Positions 1,954 to 60,268 are shown, numbered from the stretch's first letter. The stretch: 64,000 nucleotides of DNA from Bacteroidales bacterium (GCA_028716265.1 JAQUQD010000002.1:6882-70881), one strand, 5' to 3'. Made by a program: numbers and translations. The notes: generated from the letters alone by a model not told the origin.

Positions 1954-1979
1954 TCTCTTCTCTCTCCTCTCTCATTTCC
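1954..1979 (-). repeat. GARAGGA-family heptamer array (about 3-4 units) between two convergent stop codons
   Basis: The plus strand is pyrimidine-only (tctcttctctctcctctctcatttcc). The minus strand reads GAAATGA GAGAGGA GAGAGAA GAGA, and its TGA is the stop codon of the 1972-5277 gene. The array fills the 19-nt gap between stops at 1950-1952 and 1972-1974. Confidence 0.7.
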
Positions 1980-4900
1980 ACACCGGAACTCTCCCCGGCG
2001 TCCACGGTGCTCCCACACGAACCAGTTCATCCTCCAGTACCCTGATATCTTTTTCCGCAACACTGCGGATCTTCTCCAAGACAGGAGGAAACTCCTCCAG
2101 CAAAATAGCATAATTGTCCTTCATTGACCTGGTCACGCTTGTCGAGTGCCAGTGTCCCCAGGCGATCGAACCCAAACGCTGATTCAGGGGAACAGGTCCC
2201 GGCGGATTTTCTTCGTCGCTCGGATTGTCGGTCTTTCCCGTGAAAAGAAATTTGTATGATTCCAATTTACTGCTGATCTGTTGTGCTTTAACAAGGAACT
2301 CGGGTGATATGCCCGGTGTGTTGTGACCTGCCTGTTTAATGGATTCAATTCGTTCCAGCAGCTCATCGATGGCACGCTGTGCTCCCTGCATGGCGCTGTT
2401 CAGGCTGGCCACGTTCTTCTGAAAAGTCACCAGTTCTTCCCTGTCTTTGACTGGTAAAGCATTGTTCTCCAATACATTGGTCGAAAACTCAACCGGTCCG
2501 GCCAGTTCTTTGTACTGACCATCATGGACCAGTCCCAGGCGCACCGCATACTTACCAGGCAGGGCAAAGCCGGCGTCCCCGCCTTCCGTCAGCGGGTCGA
2601 ACTGCCTGTTGCGCAGGTCAACAGGATACGTACCCTGATAACGCAGATTCCATGTTATGCGATGAATGCCCTTCTTCGGGGATTCATAGATTCGGCGGAC
2701 AATATTATTGTCTGTGTCCCTGATCGTAAAGACCAGGTAGGGTGCGATCTCCTCCTTTTCGGCAATGAGTTCCGCGTCCGTCGGGATCGGTATCTTTTCA
2801 CCTTTCTTGAACATTTCCTCCTCCTTTTCCTTGCGCAACTCCTTTTTTGTTTTGGGGACCTCCTTTACAAAATATGTGAACGTTGCACCGAATGGCCTGT
2901 TGGGTGCCGTATAGTGCATGGATCCGGGCTTATCACCTGAGCGGCTCTGGATATACATCAGTGCATCCTTCACCGGAAAGATGTATCCATCTTTTTCCCT
3001 GATCTCCGGTTTGAATTCCCTCAGGGGCGTGTAATCGTCGAGAATATAAAATCCCCGGCCGAAGGTAGCCAGAACCAGATCGTTTTCTCTTTTCTGGATC
3101 ACCATATCCCTCACTGCAATGGTTGGTATTCCTGATTTCAGCTGGATCCAGTTTTCTCCTCCGTTGTATGTAAAGAAAATCCCGAACTCGGTACCGCAAA
3201 AAAGCAGGTTCGGGTTGACATGGTCCTGCACAATCGTGTGGACAGTTCCATTCTGTGGCAGGTCACCCGCGATGGAGGTCCAGGTCCGCCCTTTATCTGT
3301 ACTTTTCAACAGGTAGGGTTTGAAATCATCCCGAAGGATATTATCGAAGGCAGCAAAAACCACGTTCTCGTCGTACAGGGAGGCGAGCAGGTCACTGACA
3401 TAGGTATATTCGGGTACGCCTGGAAACGACTCGATCCTGCGCCATGTCTTCCCGTCCTCTGTAACCTGAATCAATCCGTCATCCGTACCTGCATAGATGA
3501 GGTTTTCCCTGAGAGGTGACTCATCCAGGGAAATGATCGTTCCAAAAAGAGAAGTCGACCTGTCCTTGGCAACGGCGTCGATGCTCCAGTACTTTCCCAT
3601 GACCTGGAAGGTATTCCGGTCGATCTGGCGTGTAAGATCCTCGCTGATCACTGTCCAGGAATCTCCCCGGTCGTCGCTGCGTAACACTTTGTTGGCGCTG
3701 CAGTACAGACGGGTAGGCGAATGGGGGCTGATGAACAGGGGTGTGTTCCAGTTCCATTTATAGGTATCTTCTCCCTTTCGTGGTTCAGGGCGGATGGATA
3801 TGCTCTCGCCGCTTTTTCTGTCGTACCGGACCATGTTTCCATACTGTGATTCGGCGTAAATGATATCCTGGTTTACCGGATCAATGGCCGTCCAGAATCC
3901 ATCGCCGCCCTGGGTGATGTACCATTCTCCTCTGCTGACACCGTCCCTTGAGAGGTTTGAGGAAGGCCCTCCCATGCTGGCATTATCCTGGGTTCCGCCG
4001 TACACATGATAAAAAGGATACTGGTTGTCCACATTCACCCGGTAGAATTGAGTGACAGGAAGGTTCGACTTAAAGATGTAATTTGCTCCTTCGTCGAACG
4101 TCTCATAGATCCCGCCGTCCCCACCGATCATGAAATGGCGTGTATCATCCGGATCGATCCATAATGCGTGGTCATCCACATGCCTGTTGTTCATTCCAAT
4201 GGGCTGCCAGGTCCTGCCCCCATCCCGTGTCACATGGGAAATGGTTTCGACCGAATAGACCTTGTCGACCTCTTTCGGATCACAAAAGATCTCATTGTAA
4301 TATTGGCCGGACTCATGATGGTCGCTCATTTTTTCCCAGGTGGCCCCGCGGTTGCGGGAGCGGTAAAATCCACTCTGATCCCCTGCCGCTTCAATGATGG
4401 CATAGAGTACATCCGGGTTGACCGGGGAGATCGCCAGGCCGATCCCGCCCATATCGGTCGTGGGCAGCCCGCTGGTCAGCTTATCCCAGGTCTTGCCTCC
4501 GTCGGTGGTCTTGTAGATGGCCGTCTCAGGTCCGCCCCCGATCTTGGTGTAGATGTGTCGTCTCCGCTGCTCGGAGGAAGCATAAATGACATCTGGATCC
4601 CTCGGGTCCATCACCATCTCATTGATCCCCGTATTTTCACTGATGGACAGGATCTTCTCCCAGGTTTTCCCGCCATCTTTGGTCTGATACAGCCCCCGGT
4701 CTCCACCCGGACCCCATACCGATCCCTCGGCTGCCACATAGACGATATCTGAATTCTTTGGATGGACAATGATCTTCCCGATCTGGCGTGATTCCTTCAA
4801 TCCCATGTTCTTCCACGATTTCCCTCCGTTGGTCGATTTATATACTCCGTCGCCGTAACCAAGTGACCGCTGGTGGTTGTTCTCTCCCGTGCCGGCCCAT

Positions 4901-5277
4901 ATCACGCTGGTATTGCCAGGATCCAGAGCAAGACACCCGATCGCGTAGGCACCATAATTGTCGAAAATTGGCTCGAAGGTGGTGCCATTATTCACAGTTT
5001 TCCAGATATTTCCGCTGGCCACGGCTACATAGTATTCACTGTGGTCTGTGGGATTTACGGCAAAATCAGCAATCCTTCCCGATGTAAAGGCTGGACCAAT
5101 CGAACGGAACTTCAATCCGCTGAACAAACTGGATCGGATGGTGTCGCTGGCTGCTTCGTTATCCCTTTTTTGAGCAGTAACCATTTCAGAACAGAATAAA
5201 AGAGCCACCAGAATAAGACTCCATGATACGGCTCCGATTTTTAACATCATTTTAGACATAATGTAAAGATTTGGCAA
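1972..5277 (-). CDS. secreted BNR/Asp-box repeat protein (sortilin/VPS10-like, often annotated glycosyl hydrolase)
   Basis: 1101-aa ORF with an N-terminal signal peptide (MMLKIGAVSWSLILVALLFCSEMVTAQ). It carries at least 9 S-x-D-x-G-x-T-W Asp-box motifs, including STNGGKSWKN, TKDGGKTWEK, TTDGGKTWDK, TRDGGRTWQP, SDDRGDSWTV and STDKGRTWTS. The true start may be one of the internal Met codons at 5259-5247. Confidence 0.8.
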   Translation of the reverse strand: MPNLYIMSKMMLKIGAVSWSLILVALLFCSEMVTAQKRDNEAASDTIRSSLFSGLKFRSIGPAFTSGRIADFAVNPTDHSEYYVAVASGNIWKTVNNGTTFEPIFDNYGAYAIGCLALDPGNTSVIWAGTGENNHQRSLGYGDGVYKSTNGGKSWKNMGLKESRQIGKIIVHPKNSDIVYVAAEGSVWGPGGDRGLYQTKDGGKTWEKILSISENTGINEMVMDPRDPDVIYASSEQRRRHIYTKIGGGPETAIYKTTDGGKTWDKLTSGLPTTDMGGIGLAISPVNPDVLYAIIEAAGDQSGFYRSRNRGATWEKMSDHHESGQYYNEIFCDPKEVDKVYSVETISHVTRDGGRTWQPIGMNNRHVDDHALWIDPDDTRHFMIGGDGGIYETFDEGANYIFKSNLPVTQFYRVNVDNQYPFYHVYGGTQDNASMGGPSSNLSRDGVSRGEWYITQGGDGFWTAIDPVNQDIIYAESQYGNMVRYDRKSGESISIRPEPRKGEDTYKWNWNTPLFISPHSPTRLYCSANKVLRSDDRGDSWTVISEDLTRQIDRNTFQVMGKYWSIDAVAKDRSTSLFGTIISLDESPLRENLIYAGTDDGLIQVTEDGKTWRRIESFPGVPEYTYVSDLLASLYDENVVFAAFDNILRDDFKPYLLKSTDKGRTWTSIAGDLPQNGTVHTIVQDHVNPNLLFCGTEFGIFFTYNGGENWIQLKSGIPTIAVRDMVIQKRENDLVLATFGRGFYILDDYTPLREFKPEIREKDGYIFPVKDALMYIQSRSGDKPGSMHYTAPNRPFGATFTYFVKEVPKTKKELRKEKEEEMFKKGEKIPIPTDAELIAEKEEIAPYLVFTIRDTDNNIVRRIYESPKKGIHRITWNLRYQGTYPVDLRNRQFDPLTEGGDAGFALPGKYAVRLGLVHDGQYKELAGPVEFSTNVLENNALPVKDREELVTFQKNVASLNSAMQGAQRAIDELLERIESIKQAGHNTPGISPEFLVKAQQISSKLESYKFLFTGKTDNPSDEENPPGPVPLNQRLGSIAWGHWHSTSVTRSMKDNYAILLEEFPPVLEKIRSVAEKDIRVLEDELVRVGAPWTPGRVPVWK

Positions 5278-9451: not shown

Positions 9452-10648
9452 TCAGTCCTTCAGTTCGTTGATGGTGATCCAGGCCATAAGGCTCATTCCC
9501 GTTTCCAGGCATCTCTCATCCACATCGAAGGTGGACGTATGGAGGTTGGAGGTGATGCCTTTGGTTTGGTTGCGAATACCCAGCCTGTAAAGGCAGGCGG
9601 GCACCGCATGTGAAAAGTAGGCAAAATCTTCCGAGGTCATTCGCATCTCAAGGTCCCTGACGTTTTCCGTTCCCAGCAGGGTCTCAGCGTAGGATTTCAC
9701 CCTGGCCGTAAGCTCTGCATCATTAACCAGAAAAGGGTATCCATGTGCAATCTCGACATGGCATGTACCTCCCATGGCTTCCGTGACGGATGTGGCCAGC
9801 CGGATGAGGTGCGCGTGCACCTGTTCCCTCCAGCGGTTGTCGAAGGTCCGGATGATCCCTTCCATCCTGACTTCATCGGGGATGATGTTGACCCTTCCGG
9901 CAGCCAGGACCTTGCCGATGGATACCACTGTTGGCAGCACCGGAGGAGCCAGCCGGCTGGCAATTTGCTGGAGGGCAAGGATCACGTGGGCTGAAATGAC
10001 GATAGGATCGACGTTCAGATCCGGCGTGGCAGCATGGCCCCCACGGCCTCTGACCGTGATATAGAACTCGTCGGAGGACGCCATGTACTTGCCGGGCCTC
10101 ATCCCGACCATTCCGGCATCCAAGCCCGGATACACATGCATGGCAATGATACGGTCGACATGCGGATTTTCCAGCACCCCTTCCTCGATCATCTGGATGG
10201 CTCCACCGGGATAGGGCTCTTCGGAAGGCTGAAAAATAAGTTTCACAGTACCGTGAATGTATGGTACGAGATGCTGAAGGATCCTGGCGGTGCCCAGCAG
10301 AGAGGCAAGATGCACGTCATGGCCACAGGCATGCATCACTCCTGGAACCTGCGAACGGTACGGAACCTGGTTCTCCTCCTGAATCGAAAGCGCATCCATG
10401 TCTGCACGCAGGCCAATGACCTCCCCCCCCCGCTTACCCTTTCCGGTGATCAAACCGACAAGCCCCGTTTTGGCAACATTCTGCCTGAAGGGTATACCGT
10501 ATTCGGTAAGCTTACCGGCAATAAATCCGGCTGTGTTGTTTTCATGGCAGGAAAGCTCCGGATGGGCATGAAAATGACGCCGGATGGTCACGGTTTCCTG
10601 ATAAAAAGCGGAGGCCAGCTCCCTGATCTTATCCTGTATATTTTCCAT
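9452..10648 (-). CDS. M20D-family amidohydrolase (N-acyl-amino-acid amidohydrolase type)
   Basis: 398 aa. Motifs: RRHFHAHPELSCHE, GLRADMDAL, HACGHDVH, FQPSEE, GRGGHAA. The stop abuts the mtnA start (9452/9451), suggesting an operon. Confidence 0.85.
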   Translation of the reverse strand: MENIQDKIRELASAFYQETVTIRRHFHAHPELSCHENNTAGFIAGKLTEYGIPFRQNVAKTGLVGLITGKGKRGGEVIGLRADMDALSIQEENQVPYRSQVPGVMHACGHDVHLASLLGTARILQHLVPYIHGTVKLIFQPSEEPYPGGAIQMIEEGVLENPHVDRIIAMHVYPGLDAGMVGMRPGKYMASSDEFYITVRGRGGHAATPDLNVDPIVISAHVILALQQIASRLAPPVLPTVVSIGKVLAAGRVNIIPDEVRMEGIIRTFDNRWREQVHAHLIRLATSVTEAMGGTCHVEIAHGYPFLVNDAELTARVKSYAETLLGTENVRDLEMRMTSEDFAYFSHAVPACLYRLGIRNQTKGITSNLHTSTFDVDERCLETGMSLMAWITINELKD

Positions 10649-14267: not shown

Positions 14268-14434
14268 CGGATAATTATGTATTTTTGGCCTCCTCTTGTA
14301 GGAACAATTTGTGTTCATTGATTCATTTTGATCACTGGTATGAATCCCAGTGGATTCCAATAGATATCGGATCTGGACTCAAATTCAGGTGTTTACGCCA
14401 GGGAATTATCTTGAATGACCCCTCCCCCTTTTTT

Positions 14435-14566
14435 GGGGTGTGTCAAAATATAATTTAACCCCGGAGTGCACAGAGGATTCACGGAGATCACGGAGTTTAA
14501 ATAACTCGTTATCAGTCCTCTGTGATCTCTGTGGTTTAATAAAAGAACATTCATTTTGGCACACCC
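14435..14566 (+). repeat. about 130-nt composite imperfect palindrome / structured element built from CACRGAG words
   Basis: The outer 14-bp stem pairs 14436-14449 with 14553-14566. The inner 16-bp stem pairs cacggagatcacggag (14480-14495) with ctctgtgatctctgtg (14518-14533). An apical ataac/gttat mini-stem sits at the tip. All three non-Watson-Crick positions are G-U in the plus-strand RNA and would be A-C in the minus-strand RNA. Confidence 0.7.
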
Positions 14567-14610
14567 TCTAGATGGAAAAGGTTAAATCATATTAAACTAA
14601 ATAATTGAAA

Positions 14611-37660: not shown

Positions 37661-37769
37661 CGAAAATTTGCACTGCGTCATGTTAAAGCTTCATTATTAA
37701 ACAATGCAGATCAGTAAATGTTTATATAAACCAGGTGGTCTGATAAGGAACACCCATTCGTATATCCGC

Positions 37770-37777
37770 TATCTTTG
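37770..37777 (+). promoter_or_regulatory. putative -7 box (TATCTTTG) for thiL-uvrC
   Basis: Exact TAnnTTTG match, 26 nt upstream of ATG 37804. Confidence 0.45.
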
Positions 37778-37803
37778 TACCCATCAATCATGTGGCAACC
37801 ACC

Positions 37804-38883
37804 ATGTTCGAAAACAGAAACAAACGGACAGAGCTTTCCGGGCTGGGAGAGTTTGGCCTGATACGGCACCTGACAAAGGATATCCATATTAAGAATAGCA
37901 GCACGCTCAAGGGAGTGGGTGACGATGCGGCGGTGCTGGATTACCAGGGCAGGAAGATCCTTGTTTCCACGGATCTGCTCATTGAAGGGATTCATTTCGA
38001 TTTGACCTATACGCCACTGAAGCACTTAGGGTACAAGGCAGCTGTTGTCAATTTTTCGGATATTGCCGCCATGAATGCATTTCCTGAACAGCTGACGTTG
38101 AGCATTGCCGTTTCCAACCGCTTTTCGCTGGAGGCTCTCGATGAGATCTACTCCGGAATCTACCTGGCCTGTGAGCGGTACGGTGTCGATTTTATCGGAG
38201 GGGACACTTCTTCCAGCGTCACCGGACTGATGATGTCGCTGACAGTGCTGGGGGCAGCCAGCAAAGCTGACATCACCTACCGGGATACTGCCCGCATAGG
38301 AAACCTTGTCTGCGTTAGCGGCGACCTCGGCGGAGCATACATGGGCCTGCTGCTGCTCGAAAGAGAAAAAAAGGTCTTCAAGGCTGATCCCCTAGTCCGC
38401 CCTGACCTTGAAGGATACGATTACATCCTGCAGCGGCAGCTCAAACCGGAAGCCAGAGTGGACATTATCAGAAAACTCAGGGATCTTCGGATCAAACCCA
38501 CCGCCATGATCGATATTTCGGACGGGCTGGCCTCAGAGATCCTTCACATCTGTACCGGATCGAAGACCGGCTGCTCCCTGTATGAAGAAAAGATCCCCAT
38601 GGATCCTGCCACTATGCAGACATCCTATGAGATGGGCATCGATCCGACGGTCAGCGCCCTCAACGGCGGGGAAGATTATGAATTGCTTTTCACTATAGAT
38701 ATGAAGGATTACGAAAAGATCAAGGACGATCCGGATCTGTCAGTCATTGGCCATATCACGGATCAGTCGGGTGGGATGAACCTCATTACCAGGTCGGGAG
38801 GGCAGGTACCGTTGAAGGCACAGGGATGGGATGCGTTCTTTGAAAGGAGAGAGGAGAAAGGAGAAAGGAGAAAGGAGAAATGA
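37804..38883 (+). CDS. thiL: thiamine-monophosphate kinase
   Basis: ORF 37792-38883 trimmed to MFENRNKRTELSGLGEFGLIRHL. Motifs: GVGDDAAVL, TDLLIEGIHF, GGDTSSS. The last about 13 codons ([13 protein letters not shown]) are encoded by the GARAGGA heptamer array. Confidence 0.85.
   Translation: MFENRNKRTELSGLGEFGLIRHLTKDIHIKNSSTLKGVGDDAAVLDYQGRKILVSTDLLIEGIHFDLTYTPLKHLGYKAAVVNFSDIAAMNAFPEQLTLSIAVSNRFSLEALDEIYSGIYLACERYGVDFIGGDTSSSVTGLMMSLTVLGAASKADITYRDTARIGNLVCVSGDLGGAYMGLLLLEREKKVFKADPLVRPDLEGYDYILQRQLKPEARVDIIRKLRDLRIKPTAMIDISDGLASEILHICTGSKTGCSLYEEKIPMDPATMQTSYEMGIDPTVSALNGGEDYELLFTIDMKDYEKIKDDPDLSVIGHITDQSGGMNLITRSGGQVPLKAQGWDAFFERREEKGERRKEK
38842..38883 (+). repeat. GARAGGA-family heptamer array, 6 units, 39-nt purine-only run
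   Basis: Units are GAAAGGA GAGAGGA GAAAGGA GAAAGGA GAAAGGA GAAATGA. The final unit contains both the uvrC ATG (38880) and the thiL TGA stop (38881-38883). Confidence 0.95.
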
Positions 38884-40691
38884 AGCGGGTGGAGGATCCT
38901 TTGGCGCCCCTGATCCGTACGATGCCGGAAAAGCCCGGGATCTACCAGTATTTTGACCGGGAGGGACGGATCATCTATATCGGGAAGGCGAAGAACCTGA
39001 AAAAAAGGGTTTCTTCCTATTTCAACAAAGATGCTTCGCTGAGCGGCAAGGTACGGACCCTGGTAAAGAATATCGCCGACATCCAGCATTTGGTCGTGGA
39101 TACGGAACTGGACGCCATCCTTCTGGAAAACAACCTCATCAAGAAACACCAGCCCAGGTACAACGTTCAATGGAAAGACGACAAGACCTTCCCGTGGATA
39201 TGCATCAGGAATGAACGTTTCCCCAGAGTATATCCGACGCGTAACGTAGTGCAAGACGGATCCCAGTATTTTGGTCCCTACGGTTCGGTCAGGATGATGA
39301 AGACACTGCTGGAACTGATCAGGGCGCTCTATCCGCTGCGCAATTGTTCACTGCATCTGTCGGAGTCCAACATCGCAAGAAAAAAATTCAGGGTGTGTCT
39401 TGAGTACCATCTTGGAAACTGCAAGGGTCCCTGTGAGGGACTGCAGGGAGAAGACGAGTATCAGGACTCCATAACAGCAATCCGGGAGATTATCAAAGGG
39501 AACATCCACACGGTGATCATTCAGTTAAAAGAATTGATGAATGAATATGCCAGTCGGCTGGAATTTGAAAAAGCTCACCTTGTGAAGGAGAAGATCGCAT
39601 TGCTGGAACGCTATCAGAGCAAGTCACTGGTGGTCAACCCGGCCATCCGGCATGCAGACGTATTTTCGATCGTGTCGGACGATCGTTACGGATACGTGAA
39701 TTACATCAAAGTGGTGAATGGAGCCATTGTGCAGGCTCATACGATCGAGATACGGAAAAAACTGGATGAGGCTGATGCTGAGCTGCTGGCCCTGGCCATT
39801 GCTGATTTTCGTCAGCGTTTCAACAGCGACGCTACGGAAATGATCATACCGATGAAGGTGGAACTGGCGTACCCGGATGTGGTATTTACGGTTCCCCAGC
39901 GTGGCGACAAAAAAAAACTGCTTGAGTTGTCAGAAAGAAATGCCAGGTACCTCCAGGCAGAAAAAGAAAAACAACGCGAGCTGGTCGATCCTGAGCGTCA
40001 TTCGCGCAGGATCCTTACTGTGCTGATGAATGACCTTCGGCTGAAAGAGGTGCCGGACCGTATTGAATGTTTTGATAATTCAAACATCCAGGGGAGTTAT
40101 CCTGTTGCTGCCATGGTCGTGTTCAGGAACGGCAAGCCGGATAAGAAAGAGTACCGCCACTTCATTGTCAAATCGGTGGACGGACCTGATGATTATGCTT
40201 CCATGGAAGAGATCATCCACCGTCGATATAAAAGGGTACTCGAGGAAAAAGGTGAACTTCCCCAGTTGATCATCATCGACGGTGGAAAAGGACAGCTGAA
40301 CGCAGCATTGAACAGCCTGGAAAAACTTGGGTTGAAAAACCGGATAGCCATCATCGGGATTGCCAAAAAGCTTGAGGAGATCTATTATCCTAACGACCCG
40401 CTCCCATTGTACCTGAACAAGAAGTCAGAAAGCCTCAAACTGATCCAGCAATTACGCAACGAAGCCCATCGTTTCGGCATAGCGCATCACCGCAGGCGAA
40501 GGGAAAAGGGTACATTGAAAACCGAGCTCACGCAGATCCCAGGTATTGGAGGCAAATATGCCCAGGGGCTGCTTAAACATTTCCGTTCGGTGGAGGGGGT
40601 TCGCAAAGCTTCACTGGAAGAGATCCAGAATACGATCGGCAGGAAGAAGGGGCAGGTGGTCTACGAGTATTTTAAAAACAAAAAGACCTGA
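38880..40691 (+). CDS. uvrC: excinuclease ABC subunit C
   Basis: 603 aa. GIY-YIG motif GIYQYFDREGRIIYIGKAKNLKKRVSSYF, a UVR domain (EFEKAHLVKEKIALLE) and a C-terminal RNase H-like plus (HhH)2 region. Confidence 0.95.
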   Translation: MKRVEDPLAPLIRTMPEKPGIYQYFDREGRIIYIGKAKNLKKRVSSYFNKDASLSGKVRTLVKNIADIQHLVVDTELDAILLENNLIKKHQPRYNVQWKDDKTFPWICIRNERFPRVYPTRNVVQDGSQYFGPYGSVRMMKTLLELIRALYPLRNCSLHLSESNIARKKFRVCLEYHLGNCKGPCEGLQGEDEYQDSITAIREIIKGNIHTVIIQLKELMNEYASRLEFEKAHLVKEKIALLERYQSKSLVVNPAIRHADVFSIVSDDRYGYVNYIKVVNGAIVQAHTIEIRKKLDEADAELLALAIADFRQRFNSDATEMIIPMKVELAYPDVVFTVPQRGDKKKLLELSERNARYLQAEKEKQRELVDPERHSRRILTVLMNDLRLKEVPDRIECFDNSNIQGSYPVAAMVVFRNGKPDKKEYRHFIVKSVDGPDDYASMEEIIHRRYKRVLEEKGELPQLIIIDGGKGQLNAALNSLEKLGLKNRIAIIGIAKKLEEIYYPNDPLPLYLNKKSESLKLIQQLRNEAHRFGIAHHRRRREKGTLKTELTQIPGIGGKYAQGLLKHFRSVEGVRKASLEEIQNTIGRKKGQVVYEYFKNKKT

Positions 40692-40718
40692 CCGCTTACG
40701 TTAAACAGTCAGGTCTTT
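40682..40718. terminator. hairpin between convergent uvrC and tonB; probable intrinsic terminator (better for tonB)
   Basis: An 11-bp stem pairs aaagacctgac (40682-40692) with gtcaggtcttt (40708-40718), with a 15-nt loop. In the minus sense it is followed by TTTTTGTTTTT. In the plus sense only TTT follows. The left arm overlaps the uvrC stop codon. Confidence 0.55.
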
Positions 40719-40736
40719 GCGCTGTACAGGGATCGA

Positions 40737-41435
40737 TCAGCCCTGAAGAGTGAATTTGATGGGCATGGTGAACTGGACCCTGACGGGTTTTCCACGCTGC
40801 TTGCCGGGATTCCATTTAGGCATCTTCTGAATGACGCGGATCGCTTCTTCGTCACATCCGCCGCCGATGCCTCTTAGGACGCGCACACCGCTGACAGATC
40901 CCGAAGGTTCAACAACGAATGTCATATACACTGTTCCCTGGATGCCGCTTTCCCTTGCCATTTGCGGGTATTCTATGTTTTCCTGCAGGAAACGTATCCT
41001 GGCTTCTTCCCCGCCCGGAAAGGAAGGGGATTCTTCCACAACGGTAAATATCTCAGCCTCAACGATCTCTTCATCTTCTATATCCACTGCAGACGGAGGG
41101 GGTGCCACAAATTCATCCATCTGGGTATTCTCGTCCGACTCAGCATCGATCATGATATCGTCATCAATGTTCACATCGTTATCGACAATCTCCAGGATGG
41201 TTGTCTGCGGAGGAGGGGTTGGTGCGGGTGGCTTGGCCTGCTCCTGCTCGGTTTGAATGATGACTTCTTCAATCACTTCAACATTGTCCCGAACAGATAA
41301 TTCCAGTTTTTGACGTTCGTACTGCTTCCACTCAAATGCAAGCAGAACAATGGCCAGAACAACAATTAATCCGATCTGGGTGAAGAGTGATCTTTTGCTT
41401 TCGAGGTCAGCTTTTTCGGTTTTGCGCGGGTCCAT
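40737..41435 (-). CDS. tonB: energy transducer TonB
   Basis: 232 aa. N-terminal TM anchor, a Pro/acidic-rich linker (KPPAPTPPPQ) and a C-terminal TonB domain (FPGGEEARIRFLQENIEYPQMARESGIQGTVYMTFVVEPSGSVSGVRV). Confidence 0.8.
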   Translation of the reverse strand: MDPRKTEKADLESKRSLFTQIGLIVVLAIVLLAFEWKQYERQKLELSVRDNVEVIEEVIIQTEQEQAKPPAPTPPPQTTILEIVDNDVNIDDDIMIDAESDENTQMDEFVAPPPSAVDIEDEEIVEAEIFTVVEESPSFPGGEEARIRFLQENIEYPQMARESGIQGTVYMTFVVEPSGSVSGVRVLRGIGGGCDEEAIRVIQKMPKWNPGKQRGKPVRVQFTMPIKFTLQG

Positions 41436-41569
41436 AACTGTAGAATTAGTATTGTTTAACGTTCAGTCAGCCAAGGTACATCAATTTCTCATTATAACAA
41501 CTTATTTTATAAGCTGAAAATGCATCAAATAGTGTGCCTGATCTGAGTTTGCCAACAAGAAAAAAACGG

Positions 41570-41950
41570 TCAGGCTTCAGTGATCATCCTGTACTTGTCG
41601 GCATCCAGTAGTTCATCCACTTCCGCAGGATTAGAAATCCTGATCTTCACTATCCAGCCGTCTCCGTAAGGATCTTTGTTGATCAACTCGGGCTGGTCCG
41701 ACAGGGCCTCATTGAACTCCAGTATCTCGCCGGATACCGGCATAAAAATATCCGATACGGTTTTTACTGCTTCAATAGTACCGAAGGCTTCACCTTTCGT
41801 TAGTGACTCTCCCACCGTTTCCACTTCCAGAAACACGACATCACCCAGTTCACTCTGAGCAAAATCGGTGACTCCAATATACCCGTGCCCATTTTCTATT
41901 CTCAGCCATTCATGGTTTTCTGTAAATCTCAGGTTATCAGGTACTTTCAT
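41570..41950 (-). CDS. gcvH: glycine cleavage system protein H
   Basis: 126 aa. Motifs: HEWLRIENGHGYIGVTDFAQ, and the lipoyl-lysine motif IEAVKTVSDI. Confidence 0.95.
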   Translation of the reverse strand: MKVPDNLRFTENHEWLRIENGHGYIGVTDFAQSELGDVVFLEVETVGESLTKGEAFGTIEAVKTVSDIFMPVSGEILEFNEALSDQPELINKDPYGDGWIVKIRISNPAEVDELLDADKYRMITEA

Positions 41951-42000
41951 ATAAATTAATGAATTTTAACAGTTTGGATGTCAAAATTAAAAAAATTGTT

Positions 42001-42061
42001 GGTTGATTGGTTGATGGAGGAAAAATATTTTATTCAGGCACAAAGGCACAGAGGCACAGAG
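42001..42061 (+). repeat. composite short-word repeats in the sprA-gcvH spacer (GGTTGAT x2, then GCACARAG x3)
   Basis: ggttgatt ggttgat lies at 42001-42015. gcacaaag gcacagag gcacagag lies at 42038-42061 and ends 5 nt from the sprA stop codon (42067-42069). Confidence 0.8.
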
Positions 42062-52536: not shown

Positions 52537-53487
52537 ATGGATAAAATCAGCATCATCGGTGCCGGTAATGTAGGTGCTACGGTAGCGAATGTGATTGCGC
52601 ACAAGGATCTCACAAGGGAGGTGGTCCTGGTGGATATTAAACAGGGAATGGCGGAGGGGAAAGCCCTGGATATCTGGCAGACATCTTCCATCATGGACTT
52701 TAACACGCGTGTGGTCGGTGTGACCAATGATTATATCCGGACGAAAGGTTCTGGGGTGGTGGTCATCACATCAGGTCTTCCGCGTAAGCCGGGAATGTCG
52801 CGTGATGACCTCATCAAGACCAATGCGGTCATTGTCAAGGAAGTGACGGAAAAAGCCGTTAAATACTCGCCGGAGGCGATCATCATCGTGGTTTCGAATC
52901 CCCTGGATGTAATGACCTATTGCGCCTACCTTGCAGCCAACAAACCTCCGCAGAGGGTGTTCGGAATGGCCGGCATTCTGGATACAGGCCGTTACAGGGC
53001 ATTCGTCGCAGAAGCACTGAATTTTTCACCGAAAGATATCCTGTCGCTCTCCCTGGGTGGCCACGGCGACCATATGGTACCCCTGCCGCGGTATACTTCC
53101 GTGAACGGGATTCCAATAGAACAATTGCTCGACAGGGACACCATCAACAGGATCGTTGAAAGGACAAGGAAGGGCGGCGGAGAGGTAGTTGAACTGCTGG
53201 GGACATCGGCATGGTACGCACCAGGAGCCGCGGCAGCCCAGATGGTGGAGGCCATTGTGGACGACCAAAAAAGGATCTTCCCCTGCTGCGCCTACCTCCA
53301 GGGTGAATACGGATTGAAAGATATTTATATGGGCGTTCCCGTGATGCTGGGGAAACATGGCGTGGAACGGATCATCGAGATTGAGCTCAACAAGGAAGAG
53401 AAAGCCTTGTTGATGGAGTCGGCCAACTCGGTCAAACAGGTGATGGATGTGCTCGACAATATGAAGTTGTTTGAATACAATGAATGA
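52537..53487 (+). CDS. mdh: malate dehydrogenase (LDH-like MDH family)
   Basis: 316 aa. Motifs: KISIIGAGNVGAT, ITSGLPRKPGMSRDDL, VSNPLD, GGHGDHMVP. Confidence 0.95.
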   Translation: MDKISIIGAGNVGATVANVIAHKDLTREVVLVDIKQGMAEGKALDIWQTSSIMDFNTRVVGVTNDYIRTKGSGVVVITSGLPRKPGMSRDDLIKTNAVIVKEVTEKAVKYSPEAIIIVVSNPLDVMTYCAYLAANKPPQRVFGMAGILDTGRYRAFVAEALNFSPKDILSLSLGGHGDHMVPLPRYTSVNGIPIEQLLDRDTINRIVERTRKGGGEVVELLGTSAWYAPGAAAAQMVEAIVDDQKRIFPCCAYLQGEYGLKDIYMGVPVMLGKHGVERIIEIELNKEEKALLMESANSVKQVMDVLDNMKLFEYNE

Positions 53488-54194
53488 AAACCCTTGTTGT
53501 TTTAACGGGCGCCGGTATCAGCGCCGAAAGCGGCCTGCACACCTTCAGAGACCAGGGGGGACTCTGGCATAATTACCGTATTGAAGATGTAGCCACTCCT
53601 GAGGCCTGGCAGCAGGATCCAACCAGGGTACTGGCATTCTATAACGAGAGGCGTAAGCAACTCATTGAAGCAAAGCCCAATAATGCGCATTTAGCCCTGG
53701 CAGCCCTTGAAAAAAAATACGTTGTCAGGATCATCACCCAGAATATCGACGACCTGCATGAGCGCGGCGGCTCCACCCATATTTTGCATCTTCACGGAGA
53801 GTTAAGGAAGGCAAGAAGCACGGCTGATCCTGACCTTGTGTATGACATCAGCGGGTGGGAACTGAACATGGGAGACCTTTGCGAGAAAGGATCCCAGCTG
53901 AGGCCCCATGTAGTCTGGTTTGGAGAGGCGGTGCCACTCATCGAAGATGCTTCGGAAATAGTGTCGTCTGCTGATCTGCTGATGATCATCGGCACATCCA
54001 TGGTCGTTTACCCCGCAGCCGGCCTGGTGAATTATGCCAGGTACGGCATTCCCATCTATTACATTGATCCTCAGCCTAGTCCCATACGCTGGCTGAAAAA
54101 TGTTACGGTCATCCCCCGTAAAGCAGGCGACGGCGTGCCGGCACTGGTAAAAGAACTTCTTGAGAATAAAGAACAATGCAATGAACCAGAATGA
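53484..54194 (+). CDS. cobB: NAD-dependent protein deacylase (Sir2/CobB family)
   Basis: 236 aa. Motifs: LTGAGISAESGLHTFRD, ITQNIDDLHERGG, HLHGEL, IGTSMVVYPAAG. The start overlaps the mdh stop (ATGA). Confidence 0.85.
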   Translation: MKTLVVLTGAGISAESGLHTFRDQGGLWHNYRIEDVATPEAWQQDPTRVLAFYNERRKQLIEAKPNNAHLALAALEKKYVVRIITQNIDDLHERGGSTHILHLHGELRKARSTADPDLVYDISGWELNMGDLCEKGSQLRPHVVWFGEAVPLIEDASEIVSSADLLMIIGTSMVVYPAAGLVNYARYGIPIYYIDPQPSPIRWLKNVTVIPRKAGDGVPALVKELLENKEQCNEPE

Positions 54195-54651
54195 AGATAA
54201 AAAGTACCGGGAAATACTGCAACGAACCCAGTCGTTCTGTGCAAGGGACGAAAAATGCCTCAGGCAGGTCAGGCAGAAGCTGACCTTCTGGGGTGCAACA
54301 GCCTCCCAGGCAGAGGATATCCTGCAGTATTTAACGGATGAGAACTTCATCAACGAAGAGCGTTTTGCCAGGGAATTCGCCAGGGGAAAATTCCGGATCA
54401 ACAAATGGGGTAAGGTGAAAATAGCCATCGAACTGATGCGTTTACATATTCCTGAAGAATCGATCCGGAACGGACTGGATGCGATCGATCCGGATGACTA
54501 TGTTTCCCAGCTGAGAAAGATCCTTCTCCAGCGTTCAAAATCACTGAATGAATCAAATCCTGAGGTTGCCAGAAAGAAATTGGCTACCTTTGCCCTGGGG
54601 AAGGGATTTGAGGGAGAGTTGGTATGGGGAGTTGTGAGAGAGGAATTTTGA
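54181..54651 (+). CDS. recX: recombination regulator RecX
   Basis: ORF 54160-54651 trimmed to MNQNEDKKY. It shows the three-helix-repeat pattern (FCARDEKCLRQVRQKL, YLTDENFINEERFAREFARGKFRINKWGKVKI). It overlaps the cobB end by 14 nt. Confidence 0.8.
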   Translation: MNQNEDKKYREILQRTQSFCARDEKCLRQVRQKLTFWGATASQAEDILQYLTDENFINEERFAREFARGKFRINKWGKVKIAIELMRLHIPEESIRNGLDAIDPDDYVSQLRKILLQRSKSLNESNPEVARKKLATFALGKGFEGELVWGVVREEF

Positions 54652-54670
54652 GAGGAGAGAGGAGAAATAG
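54650..54670 (+). repeat. GARAGGA-family heptamer array, 3 units, overlapping the recX stop codon
   Basis: Reads T-GAGAGGA GAGAGGA GAAATAG. The recX TGA (54649-54651) overlaps the first unit. It shares the 15-mer gagaggagaaataga with the array at 57275-57302. Confidence 0.85.
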
Positions 54671-54698: not shown

Positions 54699-55776
54699 AT
54701 GGTTACGATAGAACAGATCAAAGAGCTAGAGAAGAGGCTGGAAGCCCTGAGGAGGTATCTTTGACATTGATGTCAAGAAATTGCAGACCAAAGAAGAAGA
54801 AAAACTAACGCATGAGCCTGATTTCTGGGAGGATCCCAAAATGGCAGAGGCTGTTTTGAGATCCATCCGGGATAAAAAAGAATGGACGCTTGCCTTCGAC
54901 AGAACCAAGGCTCATTTTGATGATCTGATGGTCATCTATGAATTCTTTGAAGCAGGTGAGAGCACGGAGAGCGAACTGGATGCTCAGTATACCACATGCT
55001 TGAAAGCCATTGATGACATGGAATTCATGAAAATGCTCAGCGGGGAGGAAGACCGGCTCAATGCCATTTTGTCGATCAACCCCGGGGCAGGAGGAACTGA
55101 AAGTCAGGACTGGGCGCAGATGCTCATGCGCATGTACATCCGGTGGGGAGAACGGCATAACTACAAGATCAAGGAACTGGACTACCAGGAAGGTGATGTG
55201 GCAGGGCTGAAATCGGTTTCCATTGAATTTGACGGAGAATTTGCCTACGGCTATCTCAAGGGGGAGAATGGCGTCCACCGTCTTGTCAGGATCTCCCCTT
55301 TTGATTCGAACAGCCGTCGGCACACTTCATTTGCATCGGTGTATGCCTATCCCGTTGTGGATGAGAATATCCAGATAGACATCAATCCGGCTGACATCAC
55401 ATGGGATTTTTTCCGGTCAAGCGGACCAGGAGGGCAAAATGTGAATAAAGTCGAAACGGCGGTCAGGCTCAGGCATAAAAGCGGGATCATCATCGAATGT
55501 CAGGAAACCCGCTCTCAGCTTCAGAATAAAGATAAAGCCCTCCAGATGCTTCGCTCACAGCTTTATGAGATCGAACTGAGGAAGAAAAAGGAGGAACAGG
55601 CCAAAATCGAGGGATCAAAAAAGAAGATCGAATGGGGTTCTCAGATCCGGAGCTATGTGATGCAACCATATAAACTGGTGAAAGATCTGCGCACCGGGTA
55701 TGAAACAGGCAATGTCCAGGCAGTCATGGATGGCGAGATTGATGAGTTCATCAAGGCGTACCTGATGGAGTTCTAG
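54699..55776 (+). CDS. prfB: peptide chain release factor 2, requires programmed +1 frameshift at 54762
   Basis: Frame 0 runs from ATG 54699 and encodes MVTIEQIKELEKRLEALRRYL, then TGA at 54762-54764. The +1 frame from 54763 joins ORF 54781-55776, which carries the SPF-type region, GGQNVNKVETAV (GGQ motif) and other RF2 core motifs. Confidence 0.9.
54750..54765 (+). promoter_or_regulatory. RF2 autoregulatory +1 frameshift site
   Basis: AGGAGG TAT CTT TGA C: an SD-like AGGAGG 3 nt upstream of the slippery CTT followed by the in-frame TGA-C. This is nearly identical to the E. coli prfB site AGGGGG TAT CTT TGA C. Confidence 0.9.
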
Positions 55777-55804: not shown

Positions 55805-55876
55805 GAACAATTGAACAAATGAACAATTTAACAATTTGACAATTTAACAGTTTAACAGTTTAACAGTTTAACAATT
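55805..55876 (+). repeat. tandem array of 9 units of an 8-nt word (GAACAATT / TAACAATT / TAACAGTT)
   Basis: Units are gaacaatt gaacaaat gaacaatt taacaatt tgacaatt taacagtt taacagtt taacagtt taacaatt, in perfect 8-nt register. The array ends 15 nt upstream of the fumC ATG. It is preceded by gtcggct gtcggca (55781-55794). Confidence 0.95.
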
Positions 55877-55891: not shown

Positions 55892-57274
55892 ATGAAGACA
55901 CGAATTGAAAAAGACACAATGGGCACTGTGGAGGTTCCTGCCGACAGGTACTGGGGTGCACAGACACAACGGTCAAAAGACAACTTTAAAATTGGTACGG
56001 GAACCATGCCCATCGAGATCATTAGGGCATTTGCGATACTGAAAAAGGCGGCTGCACTGGCCAATTTTGATCTGGGAGTGCTTCCGGCCGAAAAAAAGGA
56101 CCTGATCTGCCAGGTATGTGATGAGATCTACGAAGGTAAACTGGATGACCATTTTCCGCTGGTGATATGGCAAACCGGTTCAGGGACGCAGTCGAACATG
56201 AACGTGAATGAAGTCATCGGCAACAGGGCGCATGTTTTAAATGGCGGCGTACTGGGTGAAGGACAGCGGTTCATCCATCCAAACGACGATGTGAACAAAT
56301 CGCAGTCATCCAACGACACGTTTCCGACAGCCATGCACATTGCCGGCTATAAGATGGTAGTGGAGACCACCATCCCCGGCGTCGAAAAGCTGCGCGATGC
56401 ACTTGCCGGGAAAGCGGAAGAATTCAAGAATATTGTCAAGACGGGCCGTACGCACCTGATGGATGCGACGCCGCTGACACTCGGGCAGGAATTTTCAGGA
56501 TACGCATCGCAGCTGGATCACGGTTTGAAAACCTTGAAAAACACATTACCCCATCTTCAGGAACTGGCTCTGGGAGGTACTGCTGTGGGAACCGGCATCA
56601 ACACGCCCAAGGGATACGCTGAACTGGTTGCCAGAAAGATCGCCGAACTCTCGGGACATCCGTTCATCACAGCACCGAACAAATTTGAGGCCCTCTCAGC
56701 CCATGATGCCATGGTGGAAACGTCGGGAGCGCTGAAGACCCTTGCCGTAAGTCTAATGCACATCGCCAGCAACATTCGTCTGCTTTCCTCCGGGCCGCGT
56801 TGCGGTTACAGCGAGATCATCCTTCCGGCCAACGAACCGGGATCCTCGATCATGCCGGGAAAAGTGAATCCCACGCAGCCGGAAGCGCTCACCATGGTTT
56901 GCGCCCAGGTCCTTGGAAACGATGTCGCCATCAACATCGGAGGGACGCACGGGCACTTCCAGCTCAATGTGTTCAAGCCGGTCATGATCGCCAATCTTCT
57001 GCAGTCAGCAAGGCTGCTGGGCGACGCATGCATATCGTTCACCGACCACTGCGTGGTTGACATCCAGCCCAACATGCCGTACATCCAAAAGAACCTTGAG
57101 AACTCACTGATGCTCGTCACTGCACTGAACACACATATCGGGTATGACAATTCCGCGAAGATCGCAAAGAAAGCGCATACCGAGAACAAAACGCTGCGCG
57201 AGGCGGCCATTGAACTAGGACTTGTGACGGAGGAACAGTTCCGGGAGTGGGTTGATCCTGCGAAAATGATATGA
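55892..57274 (+). CDS. fumC: class II fumarate hydratase
   Basis: 460 aa. Motifs: [64 protein letters not shown] (signature SS loop). Confidence 0.95.
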
Positions 57275-57302
57275 GAGAGGAGAAAGGAGAGAGGAGAAAT
57301 AG
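57275..57302 (+). repeat. GARAGGA-family heptamer array, 4 units, directly after the fumC stop codon
   Basis: TGA (57272-57274) is followed at once by GAGAGGA GAAAGGA GAGAGGA GAAATAG. Confidence 0.9.
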
Positions 57303-57361
57303 AATACAATTAAATACATTTTTCATCGCGTAGCGATGACATGTCGGTAGTAGATGTATTG

Positions 57362-58552: not shown

Positions 58553-58566
58553 ATGAGCCTTTTCTT

Positions 58567-58632
58567 GAGAGGAGAGAGGAGAAAGGAGAAAGGAGAGATA
58601 AATAATGAAATATCTCTCCTTTCTCCTTTCTC
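58567..58632. repeat. GARAGGA heptamer array plus its perfect inverted copy (21-bp palindrome); probable terminator of the acyl-CoA carboxylase operon
   Basis: The plus strand carries gagagga gagagga gaaagga gaaagga gagataa (58567-58601). gagaaaggagaaaggagagat (58579-58599) pairs perfectly with atctctcctttctcctttctc (58612-58632), with a 12-nt loop. In the minus sense the operon stop TAA (58640-58638) is followed directly by GAAATGA GAAAGGA GAAAGGA GAGATAT. Confidence 0.9.
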
Positions 58633-58637
58633 ATTTC

Positions 58638-60176
58638 TTACAACGGTATGTTCCCATGCTTTTTCGGGGGATTGGATTTGCTTTTATTCTGCGTCATCTC
58701 CAGGGCCTGGATGAGTTTGAATCGGGTTTCCCTGGGGAGGATGATCTCATCGATGTAGCCCAGTTCGGCTGCTTTGTATGGGCTGGCGAAGGTCTTCTTA
58801 TAATCTTCGACAGCAGCAGCCTTCTCCTCGTCGGAGAGGCGGTCACGAAAGATGATGTTCACAGCGCCTTCAGGTCCCATGACAGCAATTTCTGCCGAGG
58901 GGTAGGCAAAATTCATGTCGGCGCCGATATGTTTGCTCGACATAACGTCATAGGCACCTCCATAGGCCTTGCGTGTGATGACAGTGATTTTGGGGACGGT
59001 TGCCTCACAGAATGCGTACAGGAGTTTAGAGCCGTGCTTGATGATGCCTCCGAATTCCTGGGCGGTCCCTGGCAGGAAGCCCGGCACATCCACAAACGTG
59101 ATGAGGGGGATGTTGAATGCATCACAGAACCTTACAAACCGTGCTCCCTTGACGGAAGAGTTGATGTCCAGTACACCGGCCAGGTTTTCAGGCTGGTTGG
59201 CCACAATGCCGACGGGACGACCTCCCAGACGGGAAAATCCGACGATGATGTTCTGTGCATAGTACGGCATGACCTCAAAGAAATGGTAATCATCCACTAC
59301 GGTCCTGATGATCTCCTTCATGTCGTATGGAGTTCTGGAATCAACGGGGATGAATTTCTGGAGCCGCTCATCCTCCCGGTGGATATCGTCGGTACAGGGT
59401 TTCAGGGGGGGGTCTTCCATGTTGTTGGAAGGCAGGAAGGTCATCAGTTCGCGGATCATCATCATGCATTGTTCGTCGTTCTCGGCTACAAAATGAGCCA
59501 CACCGCTCTTGGTGTTGTGTGTCATGGCGCCGCCGAGCTCATCCTTGGTAACTTCTTCGTGTGTGACGGCTTTGATCACATCGGGGCCGGTGACGAACAT
59601 ATAACTGGAGTCTTTCACCATAAAAATGAAATCCGTCATGGCTGGAGAATAAACGGCCCCCCCTGCGCACGGGCCCAGGATCGCTGAGATCTGCGGGATC
59701 ACGCCTGATCCCATCACGTTGAGATAAAATATATCGGCGTATCCTCCCAAGCTTTCCACCCCTTCCTGTATCCGGGCACCCCCTGAGTCGTTCAGACCGA
59801 TCACCGGAGCACCCACCTTCATGGCATGTTGTACGATCTTCACGATCTTATCGGCATTGGCGCTGCTCAGCGTGCCTCCGAAAACAGTAAAATCCTGGGC
59901 AAACACGAATACAAGTCTCCCCTCGATCCTGCCATATCCGGAAACGACGCCGTCTCCCAGTATTTTATTCTTATCCATCCCAAAGTCGGTGGCACGATGG
60001 GTCACGAACTTATCCATCTCGACGAACGTGCCCGCGTCCAGCAGATCCTGGATCCTTTCCCTGGCTGTTTTCCGGCCGGCCTGATGCTGCCTGTCGATCC
60101 GCTCTTTTCCCCCACCCTGTTCAGCCAGTATGTTCCGTATCTCCAGCTGTTTGTATTTTTCTTCGTGTGATGCCAT
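58638..60176 (-). CDS. acyl-CoA carboxylase carboxyltransferase subunit (propionyl-CoA carboxylase beta / methylmalonyl-CoA carboxyltransferase family)
   Basis: 512 aa. Motifs: [67 protein letters not shown]. Confidence 0.9.
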
Positions 60177-60191
60177 AGGGTTCTGTTTTTG

Positions 60192-60268
60192 GTTGCAGGT
60201 TGCAGGCTACAGGTTACAGGTTGCAGGTTTGGAATTAACTTGAAACCTGAAACTTGAAACCTGCAACT
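60192..60268 (-). repeat. eleven heptamers in one continuous 7-nt register filling the BCCP-carboxyltransferase spacer
   Basis: The plus strand reads gttgcag gttgcag gctacag gttacag gttgcag gtttgga attaact tgaaacc tgaaact tgaaacc tgcaact. gttgcaggttt (60220-60230) pairs with aaacctgcaac (60257-60267). The array starts at the BCCP stop codon TAG (60267-60269). Confidence 0.9.

Follow-up and report, generated by a model that had tools for sequence, protein, structure and literature searches.

Why do the spacers between housekeeping genes of an uncultured member of the Bacteroidales carry head-to-tail arrays of words 7, 8, or 10 nt long, and do these arrays form a repeat class of their own? The question was raised by a first-pass annotation of 64 kb of this genome, referred to here as the window (positions are counted from its first nucleotide), which listed ten such arrays and placed them in no described class. 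The type IX secretion system (T9SS) sorting domains and the SprA protein encoded in the window fit the phylum. We find that the arrays are real, strongly enriched in spacers, and polymorphic by whole units, and that they belong to a described kind of repeat, the heptamer-dominated long simple sequence repeats; there is no new class. Our preferred reading, to which we assign a probability of about 0.68, is that the arrays are microsatellites that would arise by replication slippage and accumulate in weakly constrained DNA past stop codons, and that arrays of the word GARAGGA would form an additional layer, the arms of hairpins that follow stop codons.

RESULTS

Tandem arrays are enriched in spacers and avoid coding DNA

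Arrays were called with Tandem Repeats Finder (TRF), and the chance level was derived from 200 dinucleotide-preserving shuffles of the same spacers. The gene map of the window was curated, and families were assigned to a subset of its open reading frames (ORFs) by NCBIfam and Pfam searches. Spacers account for 3,384 nt (5.3%) of the window and contain 9 arrays, which cover 441 nt, or 13% of the spacer DNA; the shuffles contained a mean of 0.14 arrays and a maximum of 1. The comparison with shuffled spacers that the first-pass annotation had proposed thus bears out its view that the arrays exceed chance. The 60.7 kb of coding DNA in the window contains a single array, at the 3' end of thiL, and the same scan of a 50-kb stretch of Escherichia coli K-12 returned no array in spacers. 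The periods of 7, 8, and 10 nt given initially were reproduced by TRF, as were nine of the ten places; the tenth, at 14435-14566, is an imperfect palindrome without a TRF match. That the arrays are confined to the spacers of core genes holds in general but not for the array at 38842-38883, which lies inside the thiL reading frame. The family searches confirmed the flanking genes, with sufBCDSE-sufT/dxs, thiL/uvrC, sprA/gcvH, recX/prfB/fumC, and the genes for biotin carboxylase, biotin carboxyl carrier protein (BCCP), and carboxyltransferase all present in the window.

The survey was extended to two sets of 80 loci each: one around dxs in related Bacteroidales metagenome-assembled genomes (MAGs; 1.33 Mb), in which arrays of at least three copies were counted, and one around fumC in the broader Bacteroidota (0.94 Mb). 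The metagenome scan with fumC returned no close relative (best identity, 80%), and its loci serve as broader Bacteroidota background only. A number of properties emerged from these data. (i) Period 7 is the commonest: the window has 6 such arrays out of 10, the dxs set 106 out of 220, and the fumC set 20 out of 43. In the dxs set it is followed by period 8 (59 arrays), with few arrays of any other period, and 57 distinct words have period 7 and 47 have period 8. (ii) Array density is about 0.16 per kb in the window and reaches about 1 per kb in some related loci. (iii) Across the clade, 169 of 211 arrays with periods of 5 to 12 nt lie outside ORFs, even though ORFs make up 91.3% of the DNA. 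In the two sets together, intergenic arrays number 206, with another 35 at ORF edges and 20 deep inside ORFs. (iv) The words differ between genomes, and a single genome reuses its own words in several spacers, such as GAGTGGGC in locus L038, GTCCGCCT in L030, and GATTTCG in L035.

We also considered a genome-specific "ruler" of 7 or 8 nt. Array counts are very heterogeneous between genomes (chi-square, 88; permutation P < 0.0002), but no signal is left after reducing the count to one per distinct word and genome (P = 0.61), and the ruler was rejected in favor of word families. In some related Bacteroidales MAGs, noncoding stretches of 300 to 800 nt consist of chains of different 7- and 8-nt arrays (L035, 7600-8440; L038, 3540-3670, 4770-4870, and 6985-7225; L034, 6930-7230 and 9577-9944), and in L035 six heptamer words combine into a composite unit of about 250 nt, of which there are three to four copies.

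Placement relative to genes is not uniform. Convergent spacers contain 2.1 arrays per kb, co-directional spacers 1.8, and divergent spacers 0.63 (chi-square of about 20 and P of about 4e-5, computed by hand), and no divergent spacer of the window carries an array. Within co-directional spacers, the array is nearer to the upstream stop codon in 67 cases and nearer to the downstream start codon in 42, and 35 of the arrays in such spacers start at most 10 nt from the stop. No convincing compositional bias of the sense strand was seen across the clade (GC skew negative in 62 cases and positive in 43; 55 arrays purine rich and 50 pyrimidine rich). The Bacteroidetes-type promoter motif TAnnTTTG is present in 2 of 9 array spacers and in 9 of 17 other spacers of at least 40 nt, a difference that is a trend only. 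Canonical promoter counts in the window are at the level of the shuffles, and the window contains no match to Rfam families at the gathering score, to tRNA, or to tmRNA.

Copy number changes by whole units between strains

Two public MAGs provide close relatives. Contig JAEAMG010000034.1 (GCA_016294955.1) is 99.94 to 100% identical to the window, and JAXDBE010000009.1 (GCA_034679125.1) is 99.1 to 99.3% identical over about 39 kb. A look-up with the protein encoded at 9452-10648 gave no match, so that the loci at 1954 and 14435 fall outside this cross-strain comparison. Upstream of dxs, the window has 16 decamer units, GCA_016294955.1 has 15, and GCA_034679125.1 has 8; over 21 kb, no other indel separates GCA_034679125.1 from the window. 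Three indels occur in a further 18 kb of the 99.1%-identical strain: the array upstream of fumC is one octamer unit shorter, the hairpin that separates the BCCP and carboxyltransferase genes is one heptamer unit longer, and the third affects a single base at another place. Over the roughly 39 kb, three of four indel events are therefore whole-unit changes in arrays. The octamer loss is also present in a separate Logan assembly, which has the same state as the NCBI MAG. Within the decamer array, unit variants occur in contiguous blocks (CCAATGACAA twice, CGAATGACAA four times, CCAATAACAA six times, and so on), the pattern that local duplication would produce.

These comparisons bear on two alternative explanations. 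The first is that the arrays are assembly artefacts, which might be suspected from three Logan short-read contigs of this species that stop at or inside the decamer array (L003, end at 4915; L004, end at 3487; L090, end at 7121). This array does break assemblies and may be heterogeneous within samples. However, the same arrays were recovered in the two NCBI MAGs and in several Logan assemblies made from different samples; three other species have them at orthologous sites, and most arrays are shorter than one sequencing read. The first-pass annotation had named independent assemblies lacking the arrays as the outcome that would speak against it; the arrays are there, with differences in copy number, and we give next to no credence to an artefact. 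The second alternative is that they are phase-variation (contingency) repeats that switch neighboring genes on and off. Their hypervariable copy number between strains is what such repeats would show, but they lie at the 3' ends of genes or between the genes of housekeeping operons, outside promoters and 5' coding regions, and are depleted in divergent promoter spacers, and the scarcity of TAnnTTTG in array spacers points the same way. We regard a switching function as very improbable.

Arrays turn over at orthologous gene junctions

Syntenic contigs from three congeneric species (L173/L174, L175, and L177/L178) were reached via fumC homologues of 95 to 96% identity; their DNA is about 80 to 85% identical to the window, which brings the number of species compared to four. 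Locus L005 represents a sister species on the dxs side. Arrays occur at the same gene junctions in the four species, with 0 to about 9 units. The junction after the recX stop codon has 0, 1, 2.5, or about 9 GARAGGA units, and that after the fumC stop codon carries GARAGGA in three species and AATATCA-type words in the fourth. Octamers of the type AACAATTT precede fumC in three of the four species, and in the proximal part of what was one ancestral prfB-fumC spacer each octamer-bearing species has expanded a different piece (CAGCAGT four times in one and GGCGGGTC five times in another). The hairpin between the BCCP and carboxyltransferase genes is likewise found in three species, the fourth having a spacer of 29 nt. 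On the dxs side, the thiL tail is GAAAGGA rich in the window and consists of five GAGAGGA units in L005, which has no decamer array upstream of dxs and a spacer of 58 nt at this place. Array-free spacers, for example, sprA-ruvA, maeB-mdh, and the divergent ruvA/maeB spacer, differ by point substitutions and keep their lengths and promoter-like motifs.

GARAGGA arrays start at stop codons

Among the words of the window, GARAGGA stands out with 15 double-unit matches at 5 loci, against 0.11 expected, and among the loci compared it is restricted to the genus of the window. At four spacer loci, the purine-strand array starts 0 to 7 nt from the stop codon of the gene on the same strand (TGA followed by GAGAGGA, or TAA followed by GAAATGAGAAAGGA), and the arrays end in GGAGARATR. 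The recurrence of words at unlinked loci proposed in the first-pass annotation thus stands for GARAGGA. It does not stand for two other words, since CACRGAG gives 16 matches against 14.6 expected, and none with a two-unit pattern, and since TTAACAGTTT occurs at only 2 independent loci, which is unremarkable given the hundreds of array 10-mers to choose from.

These features could indicate that the arrays are selected tandem cis-acting sites for a sequence-specific protein of the cold-shock, S1, or Csr type that binds RNA or DNA, or that GARAGGA pairs with the 3' tail of 16S rRNA and acts on ribosomes at or after the stop codon. The number of loci, the start of the sense-strand arrays at stop codons, and the retention of GARAGGA at four orthologous junctions of the congeneric species are in line with this idea. 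In addition, AGAAAGGAG and AGAGAGGAG would both be complementary over 9 nt to a 16S rRNA tail that we take to be ...CCUCCUUUCU-3' in this organism, with the variable R facing U, and the GGAGG located 3 nt before CTT TGA C in prfB implies that elongating ribosomes can use the anti-Shine-Dalgarno sequence. Roles as binding sites have also been proposed for TAACTGA repeats (PMC4679880). Against this, a single junction ranges from 0 to about 9 units among close species, one species has swapped the word, the vocabulary of other genomes in the clade comprises dozens of unrelated words, and composition shows no strand bias across the clade. Two of the five GARAGGA arrays lie in convergent spacers and face no downstream gene. 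Gene starts of Bacteroidetes usually lack Shine-Dalgarno motifs, as do those that we inspected. The range in unit number, the replacement of words, and the absent strand bias weaken the case for selected binding sites, and we consider this explanation unlikely.

Three loci with inverted arms are predicted to form stable hairpins

Four loci (14435, 31661, 58567, and 60192) are inverted repeats in which an array or set of words is followed by its own reverse complement, contrary to the initial statement that terminal inverted repeats are absent. Very stable RNA hairpins are predicted on the transcribed strand at three window loci: 14425-14570 (-56.2 kcal/mol; z = -7.0), 58553-58640 (GARAGGA units paired with their complement in a perfect stem of 22 bp, with a 10-nt loop; -38.7 kcal/mol; z = -5.8), and 60177-60270 (-30 kcal/mol; z = -5.0). 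Overall, the predicted hairpin energies range from -29 to -61 kcal/mol, with z scores of -4.5 to -8.3. The hairpin downstream of the carboxyltransferase gene (58553-58640) is kept in all four species, with near-perfect stems of 22 to 35 bp and predicted energies of -39 to -61 kcal/mol, despite about 18% nucleotide divergence. The sister species represented by contig L175 has two further GARAGGA hairpins, three in all, one of which lies between convergent genes with a purine arm starting from each stop codon. A tRNA-like gene on the minus strand adjoins a GARAGGA hairpin in L175 (16990-17205). Arrays of GARAGGA alone, of AACAATTT, and of CCAATAACAA are predicted to be unstructured. A consensus scan for canonical terminators, consisting of a hairpin and a U-tract, found none in any spacer between 45 and 64 kb, and the counts were at the level of the shuffles. 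In our reading, the GARAGGA arrays are arms, expanded by slippage, of hairpins that form a family located after stop codons. As RNA, these hairpins would probably have a function at 3' ends or between cistrons, be it as a transcript stabilizer, a processing site, or a terminator without a U-tract.

Inverted pairing was also considered as a general property of the arrays and rejected: 4 of the 10 window arrays have an inverted partner, but across the clade the figure is 8 of 211, compared with 5 in a reversed-sequence control. A second small repeat, which consists of a short hairpin and the sequence GATGACATGTCGGTAG after it (in the window, CATCGCGTAGCGATGACATGTCGGTAG), has one good copy in the window (57324-57350). 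Related copies occur downstream of fumC and recX in L175 (8707-8840 and 11384-11482) and L177 (11384-11479); in L175 the element is duplicated in tandem with a unit of about 54 nt, and it ends in GTAG, as repetitive extragenic palindromic (REP) elements do.

The hairpins could also mean that GARAGGA is a small mobile palindromic element, similar to REP elements and bacterial interspersed mosaic elements (BIMEs) or to MITEs (miniature inverted-repeat transposable elements), that is moved by a transposase encoded elsewhere in the genome, with the tandem structure being secondary. The complete hairpins, one in the window and three in L175, of which one lies beside a tRNA gene, share the ends GAAATGAGAG...CTCTCATTTC, and the placement of arrays after genes or between convergent genes, together with their scarcity in divergent spacers, mirrors that of REP elements (PMC2817692). 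However, the NCBIfam and Pfam searches identified no transposase or REP-associated tyrosine transposase (RAYT) among the subset of window ORFs searched, and no target-site duplications or duplicated flanks are visible. The sites are orthologous across four species and not scattered insertions, and direct repetition of unrelated words is the rule for the arrays of both the window and the clade, inverted partners across the clade numbering only 8 of 211, against 5 in the control. A mobile element is therefore improbable.

Genomic context of the individual loci

Five loci consist of GARAGGA-type heptamers. The first, at 1954-1973 (minus strand; TRF unit TCTCTCC, 2.9 copies), fills the entire 19-nt spacer between two convergent genes, an aminotransferase gene (600-1952, plus strand) and a gene for a glycosyl-hydrolase-like protein of 1101 aa (1972-5277, minus strand); its purine strand is the sense strand of the minus-strand gene and begins at the TGA stop codon of that gene. 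The array at 38842-38883 (plus strand; TRF match at 38842-38880, GAAAGGA, 5.6 copies) is composed of GAAAGGA and GAGAGGA units and represents the last 42 nt, or 14 codons, of the thiL reading frame. Its last unit, GAAATGA, contains both the thiL stop codon and the uvrC ATG. The thiL frame passes through the array, which is free of stop codons in all frames, and a charged tail is thereby added after the conserved C terminus ...QGWDAFF; in the sister species (L005, 2985-3040) the tail is also encoded by an array, but a different one. The array at 54650-54670 (plus strand; TRF match at 54650-54665, 2.3 copies) consists of GAGAGGA units ending in GAAATAG, overlaps the TGA stop codon of recX, and lies 28 nt upstream of the prfB ATG (54699). 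Like the array at 1954, it is present as first annotated but with only 2 to 3 units. The array at 57273-57302 (plus strand; TRF match at 57273-57299, 3.9 copies), with GAGAGGA and GAAAGGA units and again ending in GAAATAG, begins at the TGA stop codon of fumC in a convergent spacer. The GARAGGA hairpin at 58553-58640 (minus strand) comprises 4.6 copies of GAGAGGA (58567-58598) and 3.4 copies of TCTCCTT (58615-58638) according to TRF; it begins right after the TAA stop codon of the carboxyltransferase gene and ends 14 nt before the start of the next gene.

The remaining loci use other words. The imperfect palindrome at 14435-14566 (plus strand) is about 130 nt long, carries CACRGAG words on both arms, and sits in a 337-nt spacer after a lolE-like gene; TRF returned no match even at a score of 30. 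The sufT-dxs spacer contains two decamer arrays on the minus strand. The main array, at 31668-31816 (TRF unit GTTATTGGTT, 14.9 copies; sense-strand unit CCAATRACAA), has 14.9 to 16 units and lies 23 nt upstream of the dxs start. The inverted decamers at 31831-31882 (GGTCATTTAT type on the sense strand; 5.2 copies) begin 14 nt past the sufT stop codon and are partly complementary to the start of the main array. In the spacer from sprA to gcvH, the sense strand reads 3.2 copies of CTGTGCCT from 5 nt past the sprA stop codon (42036-42061, minus strand; TRF unit AGGCACAG, 3.2 copies) and then 2.1 copies of TCAACCAA (41999-42015, minus strand; TRF unit TTGGTTGA, 2.1 copies); the promoter-like TAATTTTG at 41982-41989 is downstream of both. 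The octamer array of AACAATTT at 55806-55876 (plus strand; 8.9 copies) starts 29 nt past the prfB stop codon and ends 15 nt before the fumC ATG. Finally, the heptamer hairpin at 60177-60270 (minus strand), which separates the BCCP and carboxyltransferase genes, comprises 5.6 copies of GGTTGCA (60191-60229; GTTGCAG words) and 4.4 copies of AACCTGA (60237-60267).

Several other features of the window were recorded. A perfect decamer repeat at 25271-25296 (GTTATTCATT, 2.6 copies; TRF score, 52), which had escaped the first-pass annotation, overlaps the start of the DUF6029 gene (23603-25279) and the 15-nt spacer before a thioredoxin-like gene. prfB (54699-55776) has the classic programmed +1 frameshift: from the ATG at 54699, the zero frame stops at CTT TGA C (54759-54765), with GGAGG 3 nt upstream of this stop, and the main frame resumes in the +1 frame, so that an ORF listing gives only a TTG start at 54781. 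The frameshift site is conserved in three sister species, which keep the two-frame arrangement. A Sir2-family gene (53484-54194) lies between mdh and recX; it is missing at the same place in L173, L175, and L177, where recX directly follows mdh. The cumulative GC skew has its minimum at about 36000-42000, where the skew changes from negative values up to about 38 kb to positive values beyond about 42 kb; a replication origin at this turn (about 38 to 42 kb) was considered, but no cluster of DnaA boxes was found and the origin is unsupported.

DISCUSSION

Slippage in tolerant DNA as the preferred explanation

The preferred reading can be laid out as a series of steps. (i) Chance proto-repeats would seed arrays. 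(ii) Strand slippage in replication or repair would add and remove whole units, by which arrays would grow, shrink, and become homogenized. (iii) Loops of 7 to 10 nt are probably too large for efficient mismatch repair. (iv) Arrays would persist only where indels that shift frames or disrupt promoters are tolerated, that is, just past stop codons in co-directional and convergent spacers. (v) A GARAGGA array with an inverted arm would give an RNA hairpin of 22 to 35 bp whose stem, being made of tandem units, could pair in any register. The tolerance of indels past stop codons would account for the presence of arrays in housekeeping spacers, their avoidance of coding DNA, and their depletion in divergent spacers, which contain only promoters, while pairing in any register would allow the stem to withstand the gain or loss of units and may explain why the hairpins survive. 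We infer slippage from the whole-unit indels in combination with the blockwise unit variants, and most arrays would be close to neutral.

A number of observations weigh against this reading. Neutral slippage alone leaves unexplained why GARAGGA recurs at 5 unlinked loci in 64 kb, why its spacer arrays are anchored 0 to 7 nt from stop codons, and why it is retained at the same junctions in species that are about 80 to 85% identical. The predicted pairing between the two decamer arrays is weak (z = -1.4). The hairpins lack a U-tract (their tails are CUCCUCUC or AAGAAAA), so that a terminator role is putative. Lastly, the counts of 16, 15, and 8 units for the decamer array, 160 nt long, come from short-read MAG assemblies, which can mis-size such arrays. 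In a bolder proposal, the GARAGGA arrays and hairpins would be a genus-wide selected post-stop element with two candidate roles: a terminator or RNA-stabilizing hairpin that, being made of tandem units, could pair in any register, or a tandem site that would pair with the 16S rRNA tail and act on ribosomes after termination. More broadly, the genome-specific 7- and 8-nt vocabularies of the clade would owe their origin to a dedicated mechanism instead of ordinary slippage. We consider this a long shot; if true, the GARAGGA arrays and hairpins would not be passive microsatellites.

No new category is opened, since the kind is already described. The strains and the four congeneric species offer the same junctions in different states, a natural series for studying how arrays are born, expand, and disappear and how one word is anchored at stop codons. 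In practical terms, the arrays break short-read contigs, offer markers for strain typing, and add residues to the ThiL tail.

Comparison with known repeat systems

The first-pass annotation was right that models based on CRISPR, insertion sequences, and MITEs do not fit. CRISPR was rejected because the units of 7 to 10 nt are contiguous and have no unique spacers (CRISPR repeats are 24 to 48 nt long), and MITEs were rejected because no target-site duplication is visible and strains and species differ in unit number at fixed sites. For the purine-pyrimidine arrays, intrastrand triplex (BoxC/PIT) elements (PMC4666352) were considered as a possible lead. The GARAGGA and GTTGCAG hairpins resemble REP elements and BIMEs in their position after stop codons, within operons or between convergent genes, and in their predicted stability; unlike these elements, their arms are tandem heptamers of variable number and their sites are orthologous and not scattered, and no RAYT family was found among the subset of window ORFs searched.

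Where the annotation erred was in finding no described class. The short tandemly repeated repetitive (STRR) heptamers of heterocystous cyanobacteria, such as CCCCAGT, TTGGTCA, and CAACAGT, are genome-specific tandem words in noncoding DNA. The heptamer words described here are likewise genome-specific, tandem, and noncoding; the phylum and the words differ. Seven published words (the STRR words, TAACTGA, GGGAATC, and GGGGAYT) do not occur in two or more tandem copies in the window or the fetched loci, and we found no paper on such arrays in Lentimicrobium-like Bacteroidales.

TAACTGA occurs in Beggiatoaceae, cyanobacteria, and five Bacteroidetes, with 169 sites in one Beggiatoaceae genome (MacGregor 2015, PMC4679880). 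Long TAACTGA arrays are found in Gramella forsetii and Aequorivita, where the spacers hold other heptamer repeats as well, and the corresponding spacers of relatives are shorter and without arrays (PMC4679880). As with GARAGGA, one heptamer occupies many unlinked intergenic sites; TAACTGA, however, mostly lies a short distance upstream of start codons, whereas GARAGGA begins at stop codons. The GGGAATC repeats of Xanthomonas and the GGGGAYT repeats of Nostoc are 89 to 93% intergenic, with 7 to 8% between divergent ORFs (Rehm 2015, PMC4692102). Their mean distance is 28 nt to the upstream ORF and 160 nt to the next. Related species carry them between the same two genes, with extensive variation in length and sequence, and some form inverted pairs (PMC4692102). 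The arrays studied here are similarly placed near the end of the upstream ORF, mostly in co-directional spacers, with some in convergent and few in divergent ones. The Xanthomonas and Nostoc words are G rich and were studied as quadruplex formers, whereas the words of the window are purine only, A/T rich, or mixed, and each genome here uses many words instead of one.

The arrays match the long simple sequence repeats of Mrazek, Guo, and Shah (2007), which, as relayed in PMC4679880 and PMC4692102, have units of 5 to 11 nt with heptamers dominant, a dominance that Mrazek proposed to be due to polymerase slippage, according to PMC4679880. The arrays are alike in (i) running head to tail above chance, here with 2.1 to 14.9 units and periods of 7, 8, and 10 nt, (ii) having period 7 as the commonest, (iii) keeping units that are not a multiple of three to noncoding DNA, and (iv) varying in copy number by whole units between strains, here between assemblies that are 99 to 100% identical. 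The published general properties of heptamer repeats are thus reproduced in the window and the clade. The present arrays differ in that octamers are nearly as common as heptamers (59 versus 106 arrays; 47 versus 57 words), in their high density, and in their lineage, the uncultured Bacteroidales not having been among those highlighted earlier. Repeats of this class, for which neither function nor spread has been explained in any organism in which they were described, are thus unusually abundant in an uncultured Bacteroidales clade.

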